Source: Candidatus Micrarchaeota archaeon
GTDB lineage: Archaea > Micrarchaeota > Micrarchaeia > Micrarchaeales > CABMGC01
Reading direction: 5' to 3'
NCBI GenBank assembly: GCA_027315135.1
Contig: DAHUYR010000017.1
Coordinates: 1-41,277 of the forward strand
DNA: 41,277 nt
The translations under genes and the position numbers were made by a program. Numbering within the stretch: position 1 is the stretch's first letter; every line of letters starts with the position of its first letter. Below, piece by piece: positions 7,863 through 18,772 of this stretch. Under the pieces are notes generated by a model. It was not told where the DNA came from. It did no database searches and saw nothing but the letters and a program-made list of their open reading frames with translations.

Positions 7863-8216
7863 ATGTATTCAGTCTATCTCGCGCTTTTAGTATTCATGCT
7901 GTTCGCGCTGGTAGTACCATTTGTCATGATATTCAGCTCTATTATCATAAGGAACAGGAAAAAATCTAACAGGGTAAGAAATGCTTCCTTCGAGAGCGCT
8001 GAGGCAAGCGTCGGGTCAAGGATAAGCATAATGAACGAATACATGCACTATTTCTCAGTATTCGTTGCGTTTGATATACTCATAGCAATAATACTGACAT
8101 GGACATACTCTGCAAGCCTGCTATCCAGCACTACGGACATGCTGATACTGATGCTGCCCGTTGCTGGTTTCATAATGGTCGTTATCACGCTTGCCATGGC
8201 AAAGTTTACGAAGTGA
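7863..8216 (+). CDS. nuoA: Complex I-like subunit A
   Basis: Three TMs, FESAE loop, FVAFDI; first gene of the operon. Confidence 0.88.
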   Translation: MYSVYLALLVFMLFALVVPFVMIFSSIIIRNRKKSNRVRNASFESAEASVGSRISIMNEYMHYFSVFVAFDILIAIILTWTYSASLLSSTTDMLILMLPVAGFIMVVITLAMAKFTK

Positions 8217-8220
8217 ATTG

Positions 8221-8793
8221 ATGACAGAAGAATATACTGAAGAGGAATTTAAGATTGCAAAAAAAGAGATGGACCAGCTGGTCTACGAATCTCTTAAAGA
8301 CAAGGATGTAAAGCCGAATGTGATGTTTGCAAAGACATCTGAAATATTAAGAGCTCTGAAACTCTCAAAAGGAATGATAAAATGGGCCAGGGTAAACTCC
8401 CTATGGCCGATGCAGTTCGGGCTTGCATGCTGCGCTATAGAACTCATGGGCTTCGGCTCAGCGCGGATAGATGCCGAACGTAAGGGATACCTACTTTTCA
8501 GAGGCACGCCCAGGCAGGCTGACGTGATGGTTGTAGCAGGATGGGTAACAAAATCAGCCGTTCCAGAGATAAAAAGACTCTATGAACAGATGACTGAGCC
8601 GAGATATGTGGTTGCATTCGGGGAGTGTGCAACATGCGGAGGTCCATGGTTTGAAAGCTACAACATAGTGCGTGGAATAGACCAGGTCCTCCCTGTAGAC
8701 GTATATGTTGCAGGATGCCCTCCAAAGCCAGAAAACCTTTTCGAGGCACTGATGAAACTACAAGCTAAAATAAGTGGTAAGATTGAAGATTAA
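8221..8793 (+). CDS. nuoB: Complex I-like subunit B (Fe-S cluster N2)
   Basis: FGLACCAIEL, PRQADVMVVAG, GECATCGG, VAGCPPKPE. Confidence 0.96.
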   Translation: MTEEYTEEEFKIAKKEMDQLVYESLKDKDVKPNVMFAKTSEILRALKLSKGMIKWARVNSLWPMQFGLACCAIELMGFGSARIDAERKGYLLFRGTPRQADVMVVAGWVTKSAVPEIKRLYEQMTEPRYVVAFGECATCGGPWFESYNIVRGIDQVLPVDVYVAGCPPKPENLFEALMKLQAKISGKIED

Positions 8794-9148
8794 AAGAGAA
8801 GAATTACTCCAGAAAGTAAGCGAGATGAAGACTGCAGGCTATTCGTATCTGGTAAAGATAACTGCTGTAGATTATGTGGATCATGTTACTGCGCTGTACT
8901 TCCTGAGAGACATAGACAAGCGAAAGGATGAGATACTGGAAGTAGAACTAATGCCTGCGGACTTGTGGGTCCCAACAATAATGAAGGACTATACGTCTGC
9001 AGATTGGTATGAGCGCGAGATGTCAGAGATGTTTGACATAAGTATAAAGGGAAGGAAGGCTTCACGGTTGCTTCTTGAGAAATGGGACGGGCTAAGCGGT
9101 CCGCTAAGAAAGAGCTTTGCATGGGGAGAGGATTACAAATCAATGTGA
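8774..9148 (+). CDS. nuoC: Complex I-like subunit C
   Basis: ITAVDY, SADWYEREMSEMFDI, PLRKSF. Confidence 0.92.
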   Translation: MVRLKIKREELLQKVSEMKTAGYSYLVKITAVDYVDHVTALYFLRDIDKRKDEILEVELMPADLWVPTIMKDYTSADWYEREMSEMFDISIKGRKASRLLLEKWDGLSGPLRKSFAWGEDYKSM

Positions 9149-9152
9149 GTCA

Positions 9153-10247
9153 ATGTCGATAACAAGGATTAATATAGGCCCTATACATCCGAGTACACAC
9201 GGAGTGATGCGCCTTGTCGCAGATATTGACGGGGATACTATAGAACGGATAGAGCCACACATAGGATTCCTCCACAGAGGGGTGGAAAAACTTACCGAGA
9301 CAAGGATGTATATGCAGAATCCTCCATACATGGAGAAGCTTGACTATCTGGCTCCAATGTCCTACGATGAAGCTTACGTGGCAGCTGTCGAGCAGGCGAT
9401 GGGCATAGAGGTAAAGGAGCGCGCAATGTACATCCGCGTAATACTATTAGAGCTGCAGAGAATCGCCAGCCATTTATTCTTTATAGGCACTATAGGAAAT
9501 GACTTGGGACAGATGTTCACATTGTTCATGTGGGCATACATGGACAGAGATAAGGTACTCGATCTGCTGCAGGAAGCAACAGGAAGCAGGATGTTCTATG
9601 TCAACATGCGGCTGGGCGGACTTATAAGCGATCTACCACCGGATTTTGAGGAAAGAGCCCTCAACACGCTTGACTATATAGAAAAAAGGGTACGGGAATA
9701 TGAATTATTCATAGAAAAGAACCCTGTATTCAAAGAGAGGATGAAGAACATTGGCATACTTACTCCTGAGAAGGCGATTGATTTGGGGGTAACTGGCCCT
9801 GTACTGAGGGCCTCAGGAGTGCAGTATGATGTAAGGAAGAACCTTCCATATTACGTATATGACAAATTGCATTTTGAGACAAAGATACTCACCAGAGGCG
9901 ATAACTTCTCAAGATACAAGGTAAGGCTGCTGGAGATGCGTGAAAGCATACGCCTGATAAAAACGGCATTCAAGACCATGCCTACTGGCGATGCGATAGG
10001 AATGCCTGTAAAGTTAAGAAGTCCTCCAACGAAGAACAAGATATCTATAGTGAGCAGGGAGGCGCCGAAGGGGGAGGTGATGATGTATCTGGTTGCAGAT
10101 GACCAGAAACCATACAGGCTCTCTATAAGGTCTCCAAACTTCATAAATCTGACGGCGATAACGCATCTTGCAAAGGGTCTAAGAATGGCAGACCTGTTCG
10201 CGACTCTAGGGACTTTGGATTTGGTGATGGGTTGTGTTGATAGATAA
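9153..10247 (+). CDS. nuoD: Complex I-like subunit D
   Basis: IGPIHPSTHGVMRL, GFLHRGVEK, ELQRIASH, GVTGPVLRASG, C-terminal VDR; no NiFe CxxC motifs. Confidence 0.96.
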   Translation: MSITRINIGPIHPSTHGVMRLVADIDGDTIERIEPHIGFLHRGVEKLTETRMYMQNPPYMEKLDYLAPMSYDEAYVAAVEQAMGIEVKERAMYIRVILLELQRIASHLFFIGTIGNDLGQMFTLFMWAYMDRDKVLDLLQEATGSRMFYVNMRLGGLISDLPPDFEERALNTLDYIEKRVREYELFIEKNPVFKERMKNIGILTPEKAIDLGVTGPVLRASGVQYDVRKNLPYYVYDKLHFETKILTRGDNFSRYKVRLLEMRESIRLIKTAFKTMPTGDAIGMPVKLRSPPTKNKISIVSREAPKGEVMMYLVADDQKPYRLSIRSPNFINLTAITHLAKGLRMADLFATLGTLDLVMGCVDR

Positions 10248-11241
10248 CATAATACAATTATTCAATGGCATGCTGCAATCAGGCAATATACTATACAACG
10301 TAGTGGCTCTGCTAATCTATGCTATACTTATCTTCTTCATGCTTGCGGTTTTCGGATAGATGTTCGGATGGATAGAAAGAAAGATAATTGCAAAAGCGCA
10401 GTACAGACACGGGCCAACCTATGTCGGAAAGTACGGAATATTGCAGAACTTTGCGGATCTGGTGAAGCTTTTTTCAAAAGCAAGCCTTGACCTAGACAAT
10501 GCTGATTCTATACTATATGGGACTGCACTTCCAATACTGATATCCATCACTATATTTACTGTTCTGCTGTTGCCAATATTTCCAAGCCTACAGGCTACTA
10601 ATATCGGTTTTGGTCTCCTACTCGTCTTTGTAGTGATCGCATTTATGCCGATAATGATATTCCTTTCTGGTTTTGCAAGCGGCAACAAGTTTGCAGACAT
10701 CTCCGCTCAAAGGTCCATACTGATGCTGCTCAGCTACGAAATACCATTGATGCTTGTCATAGCTGCCATAGGCCTTATATCAAAAGGATACAATCTGCAG
10801 AACATAATCGCAATGCAGTCAAACGCGTATTACATAGTGCTAATGCCAATCGGCTTCTTCATATTCTTCATAGCGATGCTCGCGGAGATAGAAAGGCCTC
10901 CATTTGACCTTATGGAAGCAGACTCAGAGCTAATAGCAGGATGGATAACTGACATGAGCCCGGCATACTATGCGCTTGTGCTCTTCCTGGATTACTCAAA
11001 GGTATTCATGTCAAGCTTGCTGATATCTATACTGTTCTTGGGAGGATGGCTGGGACCGGCGCCAATACCAGGAGTGGTATGGCTCATAATAAAGGCAATA
11101 ATAATAGCAGTAATAGCTGTGATAATAAGGGCCACAACCTTCCGTATGAGGATAGACAGGATCCTGCGCATGGGGTGGCTTATCCTGATACCTCTTTCAT
11201 TAATAAATCTTATAATAACATATATACTGTTTGTTGGTTGA
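10237..11241 (+). CDS. nuoH: Complex I-like subunit H with an in-frame TAG at 10357-10359
   Basis: WIERKIIAKAQYRHGP, GILQNFADLVKL, AEIERPPFDLMEADSEL; the frame stays open upstream of the TAG and encodes the hydrophobic first TM (start GTG 10234/TTG 10237 after GGTGA, or ATG 10270). Confidence 0.88.
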
Positions 11242-11246
11242 TTTGA

Positions 11247-11609
11247 ATGATATGGCCTATACTAAAGACGATGAAGACGACTATAGGCTCAAAAAGATTC
11301 ACTGTTAACTTTCCGGAAGAGCGGGAGTCAATGCCTGACAATTACAGGGGAATGCTCAGGCTTGATATGAACACATGCATAAGCTGCTCTGCCTGTGCGA
11401 TAATCTGCCCGAACAAGACGATAACCATGGTGGATGTAGTCACCGCGAAGGGCGTAAAGAAGATGCCGCAGATAGGGATAGAGAGATGCCTGTTCTGTGC
11501 GCTTTGCGAGGAGGTATGCCCTCCAAAATGCCTGACCCTGACGAAAAATTATGACTATGAAGTATACGATAAGAGGGAGTTGCTGAAGAACCCGGCAGAC
11601 CTTGAATAA
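11247..11609 (+). CDS. nuoI: Complex I-like subunit I (2x[4Fe-4S])
   Basis: CISCSACAIICP and CLFCALCEEVCP. Confidence 0.95.
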   Translation: MIWPILKTMKTTIGSKRFTVNFPEERESMPDNYRGMLRLDMNTCISCSACAIICPNKTITMVDVVTAKGVKKMPQIGIERCLFCALCEEVCPPKCLTLTKNYDYEVYDKRELLKNPADLE

Positions 11610-11618
11610 AGTGTAACT

Positions 11619-12095
11619 ATGATGGAAATAGACATACTGTATGTGCTGATAAGCGTGCTTGCTATCCTCTCTGCACTTCTTGTATTCATGTTCAAACACC
11701 TGCTGCATGCTGCTCTTGCGCTTACGGTAACATTTCTGGCAAGTGCATTCATCTTCTCGGCGATAGGGCAGAGCTTCATAGGTCTTCTGCAGATCCTGAT
11801 ATTTGTCGGTGGTCTATCTGCATACCTGATAGCAGCAGTTGCAACAGAGACAAAGCTAAAGAACATGCTGAAGCCGGCCAAATTCTTTGCAGCTACGGCT
11901 GCCCTTTCAATAGCTTTTACTGCAATCGCATTCTCTATTCCGCAGAGTGCCTACCTTCCTTCGACCTTCCAGCAGTCAGCATCAGCGACGTTCTCCCAAT
12001 ACTACGCGATATTGTTTATAATAACACTGATGCTTTTCTCAACTGCGATAGGCGGAGTGCTGATAATAAAGAAATTCAAGAGGCTGGTGGTTTAA
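11619..12095 (+). CDS. nuoJ: Complex I-like subunit J
   Basis: LLHAALAL, FIGLLQILIFVGG; position between nuoI and nuoK. Confidence 0.88.
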   Translation: MMEIDILYVLISVLAILSALLVFMFKHLLHAALALTVTFLASAFIFSAIGQSFIGLLQILIFVGGLSAYLIAAVATETKLKNMLKPAKFFAATAALSIAFTAIAFSIPQSAYLPSTFQQSASATFSQYYAILFIITLMLFSTAIGGVLIIKKFKRLVV

Positions 12096-12397
12096 TGTTC
12101 CCTTACCTTATAGAGCTAGCATTCATACTGTTCGCGATAGGGCTCGCAGGGATAGCATCAGACAGGCATTTTGTCGCTCTTCTTCTTGCAGTAGAACTAA
12201 TAATGGTTGCAAGCATAATCGCACTGGTCTCGTTTTTCACATCAAGCACCTCTGCATCGGCAAGTCCGGTAATTATGTTATTATCGATATGGGCAGTAGC
12301 TGCAACAGAGATAATAGTGCTCATAACATTCTATATTTACATGAAATACAATGGAATAAGCTTCGATATAACAACTCTATCGAAGATGAAGTGGTAA
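12095..12397 (+). CDS. nuoK: Complex I-like subunit K
   Basis: LAVELIM and VAATEII conserved glutamates; three TMs. Confidence 0.9.
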   Translation: MFPYLIELAFILFAIGLAGIASDRHFVALLLAVELIMVASIIALVSFFTSSTSASASPVIMLLSIWAVAATEIIVLITFYIYMKYNGISFDITTLSKMKW

Positions 12398-12398
12398 T

Positions 12399-14174
12399 AT
12401 GCAGCCGTTATATCTTCTATTGCCATTGGCCGTTTCAATAATTATTATAGCTCTGCTCAAGAACAGGAAATTTCCCGGCATTATTGCGGTGCTTGGCAGC
12501 TTAGTCTCCCTTGCGATGATGCCTTTTGTCGCTTACGGTACCAAGTCACTGCCTTGGTTCACCGTCGGTACCCTATCATTAACCATAACAACTCTGATAA
12601 CTCCGATAAGCTATATGCTCCTTGCAGTAATACTTTTTGTATCTCCACTTGTATTCGCATATGCGACATGGTATATGGATAATCCAAGCGAACAGCGCAG
12701 GTTCTACATAGAGATGCTTGCATTCGAGTCTGCAATGCTAACATTTGCATTCAGCGGGAGCTTCATAACGTTTGCCATTGCATGGGGATTCCTAAGCCTT
12801 ACAAGCTATCTGCTAATAGGTTTCTGGAACACTAAACACGGTCCAATAGTGGCTTCGAGGAAGGCCTTGACAATGGTGCTTATAGGTGACATTGCAATAC
12901 TAGCAGCGATAGGGGTGATGGGGAGCACCTTCGGCACACTGGATTTCGCCACCATAATAAACGGTCTGTCATCAGCACCCAGAGGAGCAGTACTACTCAG
13001 TGCAGTCCTCATTGCCATAGCTGTATTCACCAAATCAGCCCAGTTCCCATTCCATGAATGGCTGATAGACGCAATGGAAGGACCTACTCCTGTATCAGCA
13101 TATCTACACTCGACAACCATGGTAAAGGCAGGAGTATTCTCGATTCTTGTACTGCTTCCACTGTTTCAATATACTGGGCTAACCTATGTGATATTAATTA
13201 TAGGTATACTTACCGCAGCGATTGCTACACTGAACGCGATGCGGGAATTCCATATAAAGAAGATAATCGCATATTCTACGATACAGGAACTTTCCCTAAT
13301 GATGGTTGCAATAGCTGCCGGAGCGGTGACTGCAGGCATATACTTCTTCTTCGTTCAGAGCTTCTACAAGGCTCTGCTGTTCTTCAGTTCAGGGTCTGCG
13401 ATGAAGGCTACTGGCGAGGAAGACATAAGAAAGGCAAACGGCCTGCACTCAAACAAACTGCTCTTCTATTCTACATTGTTCGGAGTGCTATCCCTTGCAG
13501 GCTTCATACCATTTTCAGGGTTCTTCTCGAGCATGGGGATAAGTTCATCCTTGACTGGAAATCTGCCAGTATATATCATATTGTCGGCGATAAGCTTCGG
13601 TACGAGCTTTTACATTATGAGATGGTTCCTATACATCGCAATGCCAACGACCAGTGATGAAGCAAAGATTGCATATAAAACGCAACCAAAGCGCATGATG
13701 GTTCCAATAGCAATACTTGCCATCGCGACACTTGCAGCATCCTTGCTGTTCACAAGATTCCAATCGCTGATGACAAATGGCCCATATTATACTTATGCAG
13801 TTTCAGGGATCCCGCTAAGCTTCAGCATAACTGATGCAGTATCATTCATACTCCTGATAAGCATAGCTGCAATATCTGCTTACCTGATTTATGTAAAGAA
13901 AAGAGTGGTAACCTCTTCAAAACTATCTGGTTTCGGATATACTGCTCCGGCGATGAATTCTTTCTATATGCATTTCTCATATTTCACTATGGACATAGCA
14001 GAAGGAGTCGCAGTATTTGACACATTCCTCAGTGACTTCTTCGACGGCATCGGCAGATTTGTCATAAGATCCGGCTACTTAATAAGAAGAACATCCACAG
14101 GACAGATAAACTACTATGCTGCAATATTTGTTGTTGCATTGGTGGTTCTTGCTGCATATGCATACTTGATGTGA
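12399..14174 (+). CDS. nuoL: Complex I-like antiporter-type subunit L
   Basis: SYLLIGFW, KSAQFPFHEWLIDAMEGPTPVSAYLHSTTMVKAG, IKKIIAYST, C-terminal lateral helix ending STGQINYY plus final TM. Confidence 0.93.
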   Translation: MQPLYLLLPLAVSIIIIALLKNRKFPGIIAVLGSLVSLAMMPFVAYGTKSLPWFTVGTLSLTITTLITPISYMLLAVILFVSPLVFAYATWYMDNPSEQRRFYIEMLAFESAMLTFAFSGSFITFAIAWGFLSLTSYLLIGFWNTKHGPIVASRKALTMVLIGDIAILAAIGVMGSTFGTLDFATIINGLSSAPRGAVLLSAVLIAIAVFTKSAQFPFHEWLIDAMEGPTPVSAYLHSTTMVKAGVFSILVLLPLFQYTGLTYVILIIGILTAAIATLNAMREFHIKKIIAYSTIQELSLMMVAIAAGAVTAGIYFFFVQSFYKALLFFSSGSAMKATGEEDIRKANGLHSNKLLFYSTLFGVLSLAGFIPFSGFFSSMGISSSLTGNLPVYIILSAISFGTSFYIMRWFLYIAMPTTSDEAKIAYKTQPKRMMVPIAILAIATLAASLLFTRFQSLMTNGPYYTYAVSGIPLSFSITDAVSFILLISIAAISAYLIYVKKRVVTSSKLSGFGYTAPAMNSFYMHFSYFTMDIAEGVAVFDTFLSDFFDGIGRFVIRSGYLIRRTSTGQINYYAAIFVVALVVLAAYAYLM

Positions 14175-14180
14175 ATAACC

Positions 14181-15563
14181 ATGCAATACTACCAACTAAT
14201 CTCTTTCCTGCTTCCCGTAATCCTTGTAGTTGGAAATATGTTCCTGCGACTGCTAAACAACAAAAAGACACAGCTCCTGTTCAACATAATCCTGCTTGCC
14301 ACGACTGCGGCATATGCGATATTTGGCGCAATAACCGGATATAACTTTGCAGTGCTAAACACTTACCTTATAAATCCATATTCGCTCTTCTTTACAATCC
14401 TGTTCGCAATAGGCATGATGCTTGTGAATGCACTTGCATTCACTTATTCTGAAGATTACTGCGATTTTGCCCTGATAAGCAGCTTCGCATTTTTGGGAAT
14501 GCTGCTCGTAGCAGCTTCAACCTCTATAATAACGATATTTCTAGGGCTTGAACTTGCAAGCATACCATCAGTCTTCATAATAATGCTATCAAAGAAAGGA
14601 AGCATAGAGTCGGCTGCAAAATTCTTCATAATGGCGTCAATATCAATAGCTGTTTTCTCATTTGCGGCTGTTCTGCTGTATGGAAGCACAGGCAGCTTTG
14701 CCCTGACAAATTACTCCTCGTCAACGCTGGTGACATTTGCGGCCGTATTGTTCATAGCATCGCTGGGCATGGACGCATCGATATTCCCATTCAACGTGCT
14801 TATACCTGACGTGTACCAAGGAGCATCTGCTTATGCCACATCTATGCTCGGAGGGATAAACAAAAAAATGGGCTTTGCAGCTCTGATACAGATTATGATA
14901 CTTGTATTCATAACAAATTCTCAGGCATTCTTGCTACTTATCGTACTTGCAGTGCTTACAATGTTCTACGGTAACATAACTGCGATACTGCAAAAGGATA
15001 TGAAACGCATGCTTGCATATTCATCAATCTCCCAGGCAGGATACATACTCATAGGGATAGTGGTTTCAACATCAGCAGGAATCGCTGCAAGCTTGTTCCA
15101 GATATTTGCTCACATGTTCATGTTTATAGGCACACTGGCAATAATTGCATGGCTGGAGAGGATGCACAGGTACAAGATAGATGATATTATAGGGTTGCAT
15201 GAGGATAACAAGTTTGCGGCGTTTGCGCTGAGCCTGATGCTTCTATCTATGATAGGCCTTCCGTTCACCACCGGCTTCGTAGGTAAGTTCCTAATATTCC
15301 TAAGCGCCGTCAGCGCAGGAATGGCATGGCTGGCGATAATAGGCATAATAAACAGCGTGATATCAGTTTTCTATTATGCAAAGGTGATAATAGCTGCTTA
15401 TACGTCTAAAGCTGTGCCGAAGAAAGCAAGCATGGACAGGTATACTACGGCAGTGATAGTAGTATGCATTGCAGCTACTCTGCTTTTTGGGATATACCCA
15501 CAACCGATAATAACAATTGCCAACAATGCAGCAGCGTACCTACTGTCTGTACCCAAAATCTAA
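14181..15563 (+). CDS. nuoN: Complex I-like antiporter-type subunit N
   Basis: LGLELASI, ESAAKFFI, PDVYQGA, KRMLAYSSISQAGY, GLPFTTGFVGKF, NSVISVFYY are NuoN-specific. Confidence 0.92.
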   Translation: MQYYQLISFLLPVILVVGNMFLRLLNNKKTQLLFNIILLATTAAYAIFGAITGYNFAVLNTYLINPYSLFFTILFAIGMMLVNALAFTYSEDYCDFALISSFAFLGMLLVAASTSIITIFLGLELASIPSVFIIMLSKKGSIESAAKFFIMASISIAVFSFAAVLLYGSTGSFALTNYSSSTLVTFAAVLFIASLGMDASIFPFNVLIPDVYQGASAYATSMLGGINKKMGFAALIQIMILVFITNSQAFLLLIVLAVLTMFYGNITAILQKDMKRMLAYSSISQAGYILIGIVVSTSAGIAASLFQIFAHMFMFIGTLAIIAWLERMHRYKIDDIIGLHEDNKFAAFALSLMLLSMIGLPFTTGFVGKFLIFLSAVSAGMAWLAIIGIINSVISVFYYAKVIIAAYTSKAVPKKASMDRYTTAVIVVCIAATLLFGIYPQPIITIANNAAAYLLSVPKI

Positions 15564-17119: not shown

Positions 17120-17512
17120 ATGGAATACAAACATAACAGAACAAGTGTAACAATGGTAAACTACCACATAGTATTCTGTCCAAAATACAGAAGAAAGTTA
17201 TTGGTAGGAGACATTAAGAAAAGACTCGAAGAAATCATGTTTGATGTCGCACTTGAAAACGGATGGGAAATTATTTCAAAAGAAGTCATGCCAGACCATG
17301 TCCATCTCTTCATTTCTGCTGACGTAAGGTCAAGACCAGAAATAGTAGTCAAGAGATTCAAGGGCAGAAGTTCAAGATATTTAAGGAATGAATTCCCAGA
17401 ACTCCTAAAGATGCCTACTCTTTGGACTCGTTCGTACTTCCTTTCAACAGCAGGAAACGTAAGTGCTTCAACGATAAAGAAATATATAGAACAACAATGG
17501 GATAAGGTATGA
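17120..17512 (+). CDS. tnpA: IS200/IS605 Y1 (HUH) transposase
   Basis: YHIVFCPKYRRK, MPDHVHLF (HUH), LWTRSYF, IKKYIEQQ (catalytic Tyr). Confidence 0.97.
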   Translation: MEYKHNRTSVTMVNYHIVFCPKYRRKLLVGDIKKRLEEIMFDVALENGWEIISKEVMPDHVHLFISADVRSRPEIVVKRFKGRSSRYLRNEFPELLKMPTLWTRSYFLSTAGNVSASTIKKYIEQQWDKV

Positions 17513-17748
17513 ATAGAAAATTGGCTTTAGTGCTCAGTATAATCTCAATACTCTTAGGCTTGACATTCTCTATAAGTAGTACTGTCTCTTATTATGGTAG
17601 AATGTGTTCCTGCCCAGCGGAAATCATAGGAACACCTCCAATACCGTGCTGCACTGACCCCTCTGCAATCCTTCTTCTATCATTAGGAATAATTCTTGTA
17701 GTTATAGGTCTAATTGCATTCATTAAACTCATACCAAATAAAAAATGA
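17509..17748 (+). CDS. 79-aa two-TM cargo protein with Cys-rich loop
   Basis: ATGA overlap with the tnpA stop; two hydrophobic helices flanking RMCSCPAEIIGTPPIPCCTDP; positive-inside termini. Confidence 0.8.
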   Translation: MNRKLALVLSIISILLGLTFSISSTVSYYGRMCSCPAEIIGTPPIPCCTDPSAILLLSLGIILVVIGLIAFIKLIPNKK

Positions 17749-17752
17749 TTCT

Positions 17753-18772
17753 ATGATTCTAACCTTCAAGATAAAACACAACAGGGACTTCTCCTCAGAG
17801 TTAGGAAAGGCAAAACAGATTGCCGAGTATGTTCTGACTCACAAAACAAGGTCTTCAAAGGATGTGAAACAGTTCGGTCTGAAGTCGGCAATCGCAAACC
17901 AGATACTCAGGAAGTATGGGAATAATGAGACAATAAAGAATGTCAATAGGATAAAACTGACCATTCCCTCTCAATCTGTCCATGCAGATAAGGAGAAGAG
18001 AACAATAGAAATTCCATGCCTAAAGTTCAATGTGTCATACAATTTCAGGAATGACTATGAGAAGATAAACCAGATAGAATTGGACAACGAATATGTTTAT
18101 GTCTCAGTCAATATAAAGGAAGAACCACAAATAACTCCAGAGACATGGATGGGGGTAGATAGAAACACGACAGGACATATCGCAGTAGTCGGAAACCCAG
18201 ACACAGGAAAGATTCTAAAACTTGGAAAAGAGGCTCTGCACATTCACACAAAATACAGGAATATAAGAAAGAAGATGCAGAGACAGGGGAAGTATGGAGT
18301 AGTCAAAATGATAAGGAACAGGGAGTCAAGGATAATCAAGAACATCAACCACAACATCTCAAAGGCAATAGTAGAAACTGCAAAGGAGAACAATGCAGGA
18401 ATCAAACTTGAAAAATTGGAAGGCATAAGAAAGAATAGGAAACATTTAAGGAACTTCAATTATAGTCTGCATAGCTGGTCTTTCTACCAGTTGCAGACAT
18501 TTATCGAATACAAGGCAAAATTATGTGGAATACCTCTAACCTACGTGGAGCCTAAAAACACGTCCAAGGACTGTTCAAGGTGTGGAAACGAAGGAATTAG
18601 GGATTCAAAGAAATTCGTGTGCCAGTCGTGTGGACACGTAGACCATGCCGACGCAAATGCATCGTTCAACATATCGCAGCGTCCTCCAATAGGAGAAGGC
18701 AGAAGTCAATTGCACACAGACAGGGATGTGTGCAAGGGCAGCACTGATACGCCCCAAGGTGCAACTCTATGA
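17753..18772 (+). CDS. tnpB: RNA-guided endonuclease TnpB, 339 aa
   Basis: RuvC-I WMGVDRN, RuvC-II IKLEKL, WSFYQLQTFIEYKA, zinc ribbon CSRC/CQSC, RuvC-III HADANASFNI; likely ATG 17753. Confidence 0.96.
   Translation: MILTFKIKHNRDFSSELGKAKQIAEYVLTHKTRSSKDVKQFGLKSAIANQILRKYGNNETIKNVNRIKLTIPSQSVHADKEKRTIEIPCLKFNVSYNFRNDYEKINQIELDNEYVYVSVNIKEEPQITPETWMGVDRNTTGHIAVVGNPDTGKILKLGKEALHIHTKYRNIRKKMQRQGKYGVVKMIRNRESRIIKNINHNISKAIVETAKENNAGIKLEKLEGIRKNRKHLRNFNYSLHSWSFYQLQTFIEYKAKLCGIPLTYVEPKNTSKDCSRCGNEGIRDSKKFVCQSCGHVDHADANASFNISQRPPIGEGRSQLHTDRDVCKGSTDTPQGATL

Follow-up and report, generated by a model that had tools for sequence, protein, structure and literature searches.

The window analysed here (the whole stretch of 41,277 nucleotides, contig DAHUYR010000017.1 of a Candidatus Micrarchaeota archaeon) harbours a run of respiratory complex I genes, nuoA-B-C-D-H-I-J-K-L-N, on the + strand between positions 7863 and 15563. 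Judged from aligned sequences, the NuoL subunit encoded in this run is devoid of every titratable residue of the canonical route leading from K342 to the outside. Our preferred reading, held with a little more than even confidence, is that the window codes for the membrane arm of a functional Micrarchaeales complex I of the NuoEFG-less type, whose hydrophilic axis would have been rewired under selection. The initial annotation had called attention to substitutions in NuoL, NuoN and NuoJ and had proposed a low-gear or uncoupled enzyme in which NuoM is missing and NuoL inert. The listed substitutions all proved real in alignments to Nqo12, E. coli and M. smegmatis sequences, which also confirmed the retention of the NuoL Lys in transmembrane helix (TM) 7, of the NuoN TM5 Glu and later lysines, and of both NuoK glutamates; the claims made about NuoM and about the inertness of NuoL are corrected below.

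NuoL residues in the window and across Micrarchaeales

NuoL was aligned to T. thermophilus Nqo12 and to E. coli NuoL, and E. coli numbering is used for positions hereafter. Changes were found at E144 (G130 in the window), H334 (F316), H338 (Q320), K399 (S378) and D400 (M379), and K229 (K212), H254 (H237) and K342 (K324) were kept. The sequence alignment covers Nqo12 residues 58-600 of 606. The protein shares with canonical NuoL/ND5 (E. coli, Nqo12) the PF00662 and PF00361 domains, the place after nuoK, the length class, an identical K305-S250-H254 uptake triad, the K229-D178 pair and K342, but differs from it in lacking H334, H338, K399, D400, R175 and, in this species, also E144, as well as in carrying a Lys at T260 and a Glu at Q315. 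Its best NCBIfam match was NuoL, with 305 bits against an equivalog cut-off of 556, and NuoN reached 254 bits with TIGR01770, whose cut-off is 332.6; both proteins are divergent members that match their own NCBIfam models best and fall below the curated cut-offs. The features of the two genes are as follows.

12399..14174, + strand: nuoL, 591 amino acids; canonical uptake half and central axis, output residues absent; PF00662 and PF00361
12786..12788, + strand: GGA codon for Gly130, which occupies the position of E. coli E144 (the TM5 Glu); GAG or GAA in five congeners
13101..13133, + strand: NuoL TM8 stretch with the junction His237 and the extra Lys243 (E. coli T260)
13275..13295, + strand: NuoL TM10 stretch with Glu297 (E. 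coli Q315), in the column of NuoM H322 and NuoN H305
13338..13382, + strand: NuoL TM11 stretch; H334 to F316, H338 to Q320, K342 kept as K324
13518..13541, + strand: NuoL TM12 stretch; K399 to S378, D400 to M379; helix without a titratable residue
14181..15563, + strand: nuoN, 460 amino acids; PF00361
14760..14825, + strand: NuoN TM7 stretch; K217 to D198, H224 to N205

The comparison covered 41 genomes of the order Micrarchaeales, including the window's own genome (G000), and one NuoL, one NuoM and one NuoN were found in 39 of them. Sequences tabulated from fetched loci amounted to 31 NuoL, 33 NuoM and 31 NuoN, and are divided here into the window's family (f1) and its sister family (f3); an unpublished genome, G038, contributes one row to each f3 count, and no result rests on it alone. 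Among 201 sampled genomes of the phylum, those with the complex all belonged to Micrarchaeales: it was present in 35/35 genomes of f1, 48/56 of f3 and 0/109 of other families.

All 30 full-length NuoL of the order have lost H334 (replaced by F, L or I), H338 (by Q), D400 (by a non-acidic residue) and R175 (by L, F or I). K399 is replaced in the 22 f1 proteins by N (12), S (9) or A (1), and is retained as K in the 8 proteins of f3. D82 and R268 are missing as well, according to a column comparison of the 22 f1 and 8 f3 proteins with the outgroup described below. Conversely, ten residues (D178, K229, S250, H254, T257, M258, V259, K305, K342 and F346) were invariant in 30/30 relatives. The 120 best-matching NuoL clusters of a large protein database followed the same pattern: none has K399, and K229, S250, H254, K305 and K342, together with the Lys at T260 and the Glu at Q315, are present in every one. 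With respect to the elements that characterise a canonical NuoL, the uptake triad and the TM7 Lys are therefore in place, the E144/R175 pair is absent, and so is the output path made up of H334, H338, K399 and D400.

The outgroup consisted of 71 non-Micrarchaeota loci from bacteria and archaea, obtained by a scan of species-representative genomes and picked by two peptide patterns that do not contain the tested residues, together with the best tblastn score. Fifty-nine full-length NuoL (five short fragments were left out) and 66 NuoN (seven loci with frames longer than 700 amino acids were left out) were compared. K399, D400 and H338 were found in all 59 outgroup NuoL, H334 and E144 in 58 each, and position 175 was R in 55 and K in 3. 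Four Thermoplasmata and three Nitrosopumilales proteins in this set, unlike that of the window, have K399, D400, H334, H338 and R or K at 175. The residues whose loss had been pointed out by the initial annotation are those that define the canonical output half, and not one of the 59 proteins lacks K399, D400 or H338, so the possibility that such substitutions are common in fully pumping archaeal complexes found no support.

In a NuoL tree (FastTree, SH-like support only, midpoint root), all 27 K399-less rows fell on one side of a branch with support 94, a topology with which a single loss of K399 fits. The tree does not settle the sister group of the Micrarchaeales NuoL genes, and no transfer from Thermoplasmata is claimed. 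A contig labelled Methanothrix sp. (L102) carries Micrarchaeales-type nuoL-M-N genes and pairs with G031 in this tree, probably as a result of a binning error.

The history of E144 is different. Besides its loss in the window's species, it is replaced by G in G010 and by S in G011 and G018, five congeners of G000 keep the Glu, and at least three changes are needed on the NuoL tree. Since R175 is gone in the whole order, E144 would be left without its partner, which fits both the repeated later loss of E144 and the unchanged K229-D178 pair. E144G is best regarded as a species-level extra, probably the tolerated loss of an unpartnered TM5 Glu. The only outgroup NuoL without E144 (Gly), that of a Gaiellaceae metagenome-assembled genome (MAG; L150), also lacks R175 (Ala).

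NuoN, NuoM and purifying selection

Alignment of NuoN to its M. smegmatis and E. coli counterparts revealed the changes K217 to D198 and H224 to N205, and the retention of E133 (E124), K247 (K228) and K395 (K369). The canonical ion pair between the TM5 Glu and the TM7 Lys is consequently absent, and the TM8 and TM12 lysines are present. Thirty of the 31 Micrarchaeales sequences carry Asp or Glu at position 217, the exception being G023, and K247 and K395 are kept in 30/31 and 31/31, respectively. In the outgroup, K217 was found in 65/66 proteins, and E217 in only one of the four Thermoplasmata sampled; the exceptional protein belongs to a Thermoplasmata MAG (L106), whose NuoL is canonical. Among 148 cluster representatives nearest to NuoN, a set from which two proteins longer than 700 amino acids were left out, 127 carry K at position 217, 13 carry E, 5 D and 2 G, and one has a gap there. 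Beyond the top rows, which share Micrarchaeales-type residues, four more representatives carry E217, and in the E217 cluster of P0245, named Candidatus Sysuiplasma acidicola by one source, E133 is also replaced by A.

An acid at position 217 was accompanied by Lys248 in 13/18 representatives, as against 16/127 of the K217 proteins, although the relatives counted are not independent. This association suggests a swapped ion pair. K248, Q305 and H333 are themselves archaeal-type residues of NuoN, common to Micrarchaeales, Thermoplasmata, Nitrosopumilales and others. The initial annotation had treated K217 as a pumping residue that was simply lost, a description that does not hold, as the Lys is replaced by a conserved acid, and the E. 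coli K217A enzyme, with approximately 50% oxidase activity, shows normal pumping in proteoliposomes according to passages of PMC13073174. The same passages report that the purified E. coli E133A enzyme behaves like the wild type and that K247A and K395A are nearly dead.

The gene for NuoM, stated to be missing in the initial annotation, is in fact present in the genome. A third PF00361 gene with NuoM as its best match lies at G000:C36:1209-2624(-) (locus L001), and its product groups with NuoM. It contains E144, K234, H241, K265 and H348, the canonical uptake triad H248, S256 and K312, and an acidic residue in TM12, and thus has the features of a canonical NuoM; E407 and H322 are both Asp. Replacement of E407 by D and of H322 by D or E was found in 32/33 Micrarchaeales NuoM. 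Members of f3 additionally show E144 to D (9/9) and K234 to N (6/9), and 20/23 members of f1 have gained a second Glu one turn past E144. nuoM lies outside the operon in most f1 genera, and the L-M-N order occurs in G007, G019, G022 and f3. On C36 the gene stands alone between an unannotated 316-residue membrane open reading frame (ORF) and a Cdc48-like AAA ATPase, and in other f1 genera it is divergent beside nuoN or follows it. Elsewhere, the central TM8 Lys of NuoM is Gly in the three Nitrosopumilales-type loci L112, L114 and L124, and the TM7 Lys is Leu in Moorella, Dichloromethanomonas and a second Chloroflexi NuoM (L105, L111, L116).

Ratios of nonsynonymous to synonymous substitution rates (dN/dS, omega) were calculated pairwise within the genus with the NG86 method, and amounted to 0.04-0.14 for nuoL, 0.06-0.12 for nuoN and 0.02-0.10 for nuoM. 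In the least saturated pairs (dS 0.6-0.8), omega of nuoL was 0.04-0.06. The terminal branch of G000 (0.14, FastTree) is not longer than that of its neighbour G006 (0.16). Because dN/dS lies between 0.02 and 0.14 for the three genes, far from the value near 1 that pseudogenisation would give, the changes in L, M and N are, as these rates indicate, selected rewiring and not decay. NuoL cannot be called inert by any sequence criterion either, with its ten residues invariant in 30/30 relatives and its dN/dS of 0.04-0.14. A different picture is seen in G023, assembled as a single contig (loci L056 and L082), where the NuoL frame has 309 amino acids and losses are scattered over NuoN (K217G, E154G, K247N) and NuoM (H322G, H348Q, E407Y); this genome appears to be losing the complex and would illustrate the pattern of true decay in the family.

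Gene set, reliability of the assembly and respiratory context

The window corresponds to contig C31 of G000, a genome of 806,683 bases in 50 contigs that is 88% complete. The closest proteins and loci bear source labels of Micrarchaeota, Micrarchaeaceae or Micrarchaeales. Fifty per cent or more of the words sampled from the stretch occur in each of eight runs labelled as mine-drainage or soil metagenomes, with no RNA run among those listed. The presence in mine-drainage runs is the sole habitat evidence bearing on the very large transmembrane pH gradient that, according to the initial annotation, a low-gear enzyme could suit. The ten nuo genes of the window and nuoM on C36 make up an 11-subunit complex I of the NuoEFG-less type, and no NuoF was found in G000, bearing in mind its completeness of 88%. 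The genes preceding nuoL are listed below.

7863..8216, + strand: nuoA, 117 amino acids; PF00507, E 7e-08
8191..8793, + strand: nuoB, 200 amino acids, with the cysteines of the N2 cluster; PF01058, E 3e-26
8774..9148, + strand: nuoC, 124 amino acids; PF00329, E 7e-20
9117..10247, + strand: nuoD, 376 amino acids; PF00346, E 2e-77
10234..11241, + strand: nuoH, with an in-frame TAG at 10357-10359 in the assembly; PF00146, E 4e-83
11247..11609, + strand: nuoI, 120 amino acids; Fer4 families, two CxxCxxCxxxCP motifs in the translation
11619..12095, + strand: nuoJ, 158 amino acids, Y59 to F; PF00499
12095..12397, + strand: nuoK, 100 amino acids, E36 and E72 kept; PF00420

The translation of nuoB shows the motifs CCAIE, GECATCGG and GCPP (a CC...C...C pattern), and the cysteine patterns of NuoB and NuoI bear out the earlier statement that the Fe-S ligands are retained. 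Pairwise alignments alone, made to E. coli in the case of NuoA, indicate that D79 of NuoA is kept and E81 replaced by L, and that the NuoH carboxylates E157, D213, E216 and E220 are kept, with E218 and E228 replaced by D. Apart from these replacements in NuoA and NuoH, the Fe-S ligands and the E-channel carboxylates are complete. None of 28 relatives has Tyr at NuoJ position 59, where F, L, M or I is found instead. E36 of NuoK is kept in 28/28 relatives, 25 of which have E and 3 have D at position 72.

The TAG in nuoH, located directly before an ATG, would cut off a 41-residue TM1 peptide (window 10234-10362), and the open frame listed from 10360 has 293 amino acids. Logan contigs from four runs belonging to two studies were compared with positions 10200-13000. 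All four runs read T at 10359, giving TAT in place of TAG, and the position is Tyr in 6/6 relatives; on both grounds, the stop is an error or a rare allele of this assembly. The idea of a split nuoH was discarded in view of the TAT found in the contigs of all four runs. The contigs differ from the window at 30 positions (X4), 14 positions (X5, record 18) and 2 positions (X1, record 2). Since none of these differences falls within 12786-12788, Gly130 of NuoL is real and fixed among strains approximately 1% apart from two studies. The assertion that the substitutions are not sequencing noise was thus well founded: identical or equivalent residues are shared by as many as 30 relatives and by 120 clusters, and the GGA codon is unchanged in X1, X4 and X5.

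Regarding the respiratory context, CydA, COX2 and cytochrome b were not found in G000, where COX1 gave only a 13-bit match, and cydA was found in none of 6 congeners. The genome contains the A and B subunits of an A-type ATPase, an SdhA-like flavoprotein and a 2-oxoacid:ferredoxin oxidoreductase (OFOR), and the search returned three matches to the UbiA family, which do not in themselves demonstrate quinone synthesis. cydA is present in 4/24 f1 genomes and 7/15 f3 genomes. A relationship between the terminal oxidase and the loss of K399 was considered and dropped, as the trend is weak, the genomes are related and four K399-less genomes have cydA. A nuoEFG-less NADH dehydrogenase, with ferredoxin as proposed donor, has already been reported in Micrarchaeota, together with the lack of cytochrome bd-II in some members (passages of Chen et al., ISME J 2018, PMC5864196); pump residues are not discussed in those passages. 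A literature search, with subscription journals and supplements outside its reach, returned no paper describing these substitutions in Micrarchaeota.

Approximately 1.5 kb downstream of nuoN, at 17120-18772, the window also contains an IS200/IS605-type pair formed by a Y1 transposase (PF01797) and a TnpB/Cas12f-like protein (PF07282).

Competing explanations and significance

The gene set resembles that of other NuoEFG-less 11-subunit enzymes (Thermoplasmatales, cyanobacteria) in that no NuoF was found, nuoA-D and nuoH-N are present and OFOR is a possible source of ferredoxin. NuoL is not the Mrp antiporter subunit MrpA, given that nuoL sits between nuoK and nuoN, and MrpA models match NuoL only N-terminally (for example, over residues 31-525 of 773) and far below their cut-offs. 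According to passages of PMC9271201, the wave model places terminal release at NuoL K399/D400, and the ND5-only model allows no other exit. A preprint of October 2026 (bioRxiv 10.64898/2026.10.08.757549) reports that active uptake paths set the number of protons, that every solved structure conserves the ND5 uptake triad, that E. coli has a two-proton enzyme and that M. smegmatis lacks the ND4 triad; natural stoichiometries are proposed to differ, and all three models use one ND5 output. The combination of intact L and M uptake triads without the canonical output is not described there. As in the geared-down complex I of E. coli and M. smegmatis presented there, where stoichiometry is tuned by silencing parts of the antiporter-like module, functional elements are lost, but in those enzymes it is the N-side ND4 or ND2 uptake that is silenced and ND5 is untouched, whereas here L and M uptake are intact and the ND5 output is missing. 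Changes at the same positions are also known from the E. coli variants NuoN K217A/R, NuoM E407K and NuoL E144Q/K229A, of which E407K still pumps (passages of PMC9271201); work cited in PMC4938563 found severe impairment in E144Q and K229A. These variants are single changes with partial loss, in contrast to the multiple, fixed changes accompanied by conserved new charges reported here.

If the enzyme works as we prefer to think, it would still couple electron transfer to proton movement, with ferredoxin from the OFOR as the likely donor and a quinone as the presumed acceptor. Protons taken up through NuoL could not leave via the TM12 Lys/Asp. With the canonical NuoL exit gone, they would either leave by another route, for which the Lys at T260 (TM8), the Glu at Q315 (TM10) and K342 could provide a substitute, or be pumped in smaller numbers, the distal module then contributing fewer protons and H+/2e- falling below that of the canonical enzyme. 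A changed proton route is certain on these sequences provided that the enzyme pumps at all, and for a lowered stoichiometry we see somewhat less than an even chance. The substitutions are not widespread among archaeal complexes that pump fully, and it is reasonable to hypothesise a changed route or a reduced stoichiometry. The fuller proposal, a working redox pump with ordinary ND5-type uptake and a release that dispenses with the TM12 Lys/Asp in favour of the TM8 Lys/TM10 Glu/K342 or of another subunit, is tentative, and its probability falls well short of even.

Whether the new charges represent compensation bears directly on that proposal. The Lys at T260 is present in 30/30 NuoL of the order and in 120/120 clusters; 45 outgroup proteins carry T there, 8 carry A and 4 carry K. 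The HSTTMVK motif, listed as retained by the initial annotation, does occur in the window, but its Lys is not the consensus residue, which is Thr in 45/59 outgroup proteins. The Q315 column is E in 22/22 f1 proteins and 120/120 clusters, D in 8/8 f3 proteins and Q in 58/59 outgroup proteins. NuoM is also acidic at the equivalent column, and NuoM H322 and NuoN H305 are described as bridging residues of the axis in passages of bioRxiv 10.64898/2026.01.27.702182. Further conserved charges of NuoL that are mostly absent from the outgroup are the Glu at T237 and the Glu at Y119. Because Nitrosopumilales with a canonical exit have both Lys(T260) and Glu(T237), these two are, on this comparison, archaeal background and not specific repairs. 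Together with K248, H333 and Q305 of NuoN, they were discarded as Micrarchaeales inventions, being common to other archaea. Within the sample, the acid at Q315 is the one such charge confined to the order. Conserved charges that could compensate do exist, as the Lys at T260 and the acid at Q315 illustrate, and the former is shared with proteins that have retained the canonical exit.

Several points weigh against a rewired, working pump. Lys(T260) and Glu(T237) coexist with K399/D400 in Nitrosopumilales NuoL, as just mentioned. The outgroup is not a random sample, the pairs that contain G000 are saturated (dS 1.1-2.4), and a terminal oxidase was found neither in G000 nor in 6 congeners, whose completeness ranges from 64 to 89%. 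In addition, the replacement of Lys by Asp in NuoN might do more damage than the E. coli K217A results would lead one to expect.

The most serious competitor, which we consider unlikely, is that NuoL, and perhaps NuoN, is a non-pumping structural remnant, and that the complex is a low-gear or uncoupled enzyme serving quinone reduction and redox balance. The disappearance of all canonical output residues and the repeated loss of the TM5 Glu within the family, which requires at least three changes, speak for such a remnant. Half of the pumping is reportedly retained by a Y. lipolytica subcomplex from which the distal module is missing (PMC3160329), and natural two-proton enzymes have been proposed (passages of bioRxiv 10.64898/2026.10.08.757549). 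However, NuoM is present, and the uptake triad, ion pair and K342 of NuoL are invariant in 30/30 relatives and, where tested, in 120/120 clusters, with an omega for nuoL as low as those of nuoM and nuoN. True decay, as in G023, looks different: there NuoL is cut short and losses are dispersed over M and N. Moreover, in the ND5-exit models set out in those passages of the preprint, an inert L would abolish pumping altogether, and conservation of the entire axis would then be difficult to explain. The lesser idea that complex I of G000 stands only at the onset of decay, with E144G of NuoL and the nuoH stop as first lesions, draws on E144G being unique in the genus, where five congeners keep the Glu, and on the TAG that replaces a conserved nuoH Tyr in the assembly; it seems to us very improbable, in view of the TAT read by four of four runs, the fixation of the Gly codon in strains approximately 1% apart from two studies, values of omega and branch length that are not raised, and the far earlier loss of the partner R175.

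A change of job rather than of gear is also conceivable, although we rate it below a remnant NuoL: another cation might be translocated, or the enzyme might routinely run in reverse, with the acid-mine gradient driving electrons from quinol to ferredoxin. Two carboxylates in NuoN (E133 and D/E217) where others have an ion pair, the second NuoM Glu one turn past E144 in 20/23 f1 members, the acid at the TM10 bridging position of both NuoL and NuoM, the failure to find a terminal oxidase in the genus and the occurrence of the organism in mine-drainage runs are all in keeping with it. Nevertheless, the idea is pure inference, reverse operation likewise needs a path on the P side, and 4/24 f1 relatives with the same substitutions have cytochrome bd. 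A selectively rewired, working complex I continues to be the reading that we favour.

The mechanism of proton movement by complex I, its stoichiometry and the point of exit are still disputed. Competing models make the TM12 Lys of NuoL/ND5 and its neighbouring Asp the final release site, and in the newest, as set out in the passages cited above, every proton exits there. A large natural clade has removed this release site and the His bridge while strong purifying selection has preserved the uptake path and the rest of the axis, which is the reverse of the gearing-down lately described, in those same passages, for E. coli and mycobacteria. Should the tentative proposal of a release that dispenses with the TM12 Lys/Asp hold for the Micrarchaeaceae enzyme, the "single, universal ND5 output pathway" assumed in current models would lose its universality, and this enzyme would have a stoichiometry of its own. 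As a multi-residue variant made by evolution, it could be copied into model enzymes or studied directly, offering a natural test of pumping, and it bears on energy conservation in the ultra-small, host-associated archaea of acid mine drainage.

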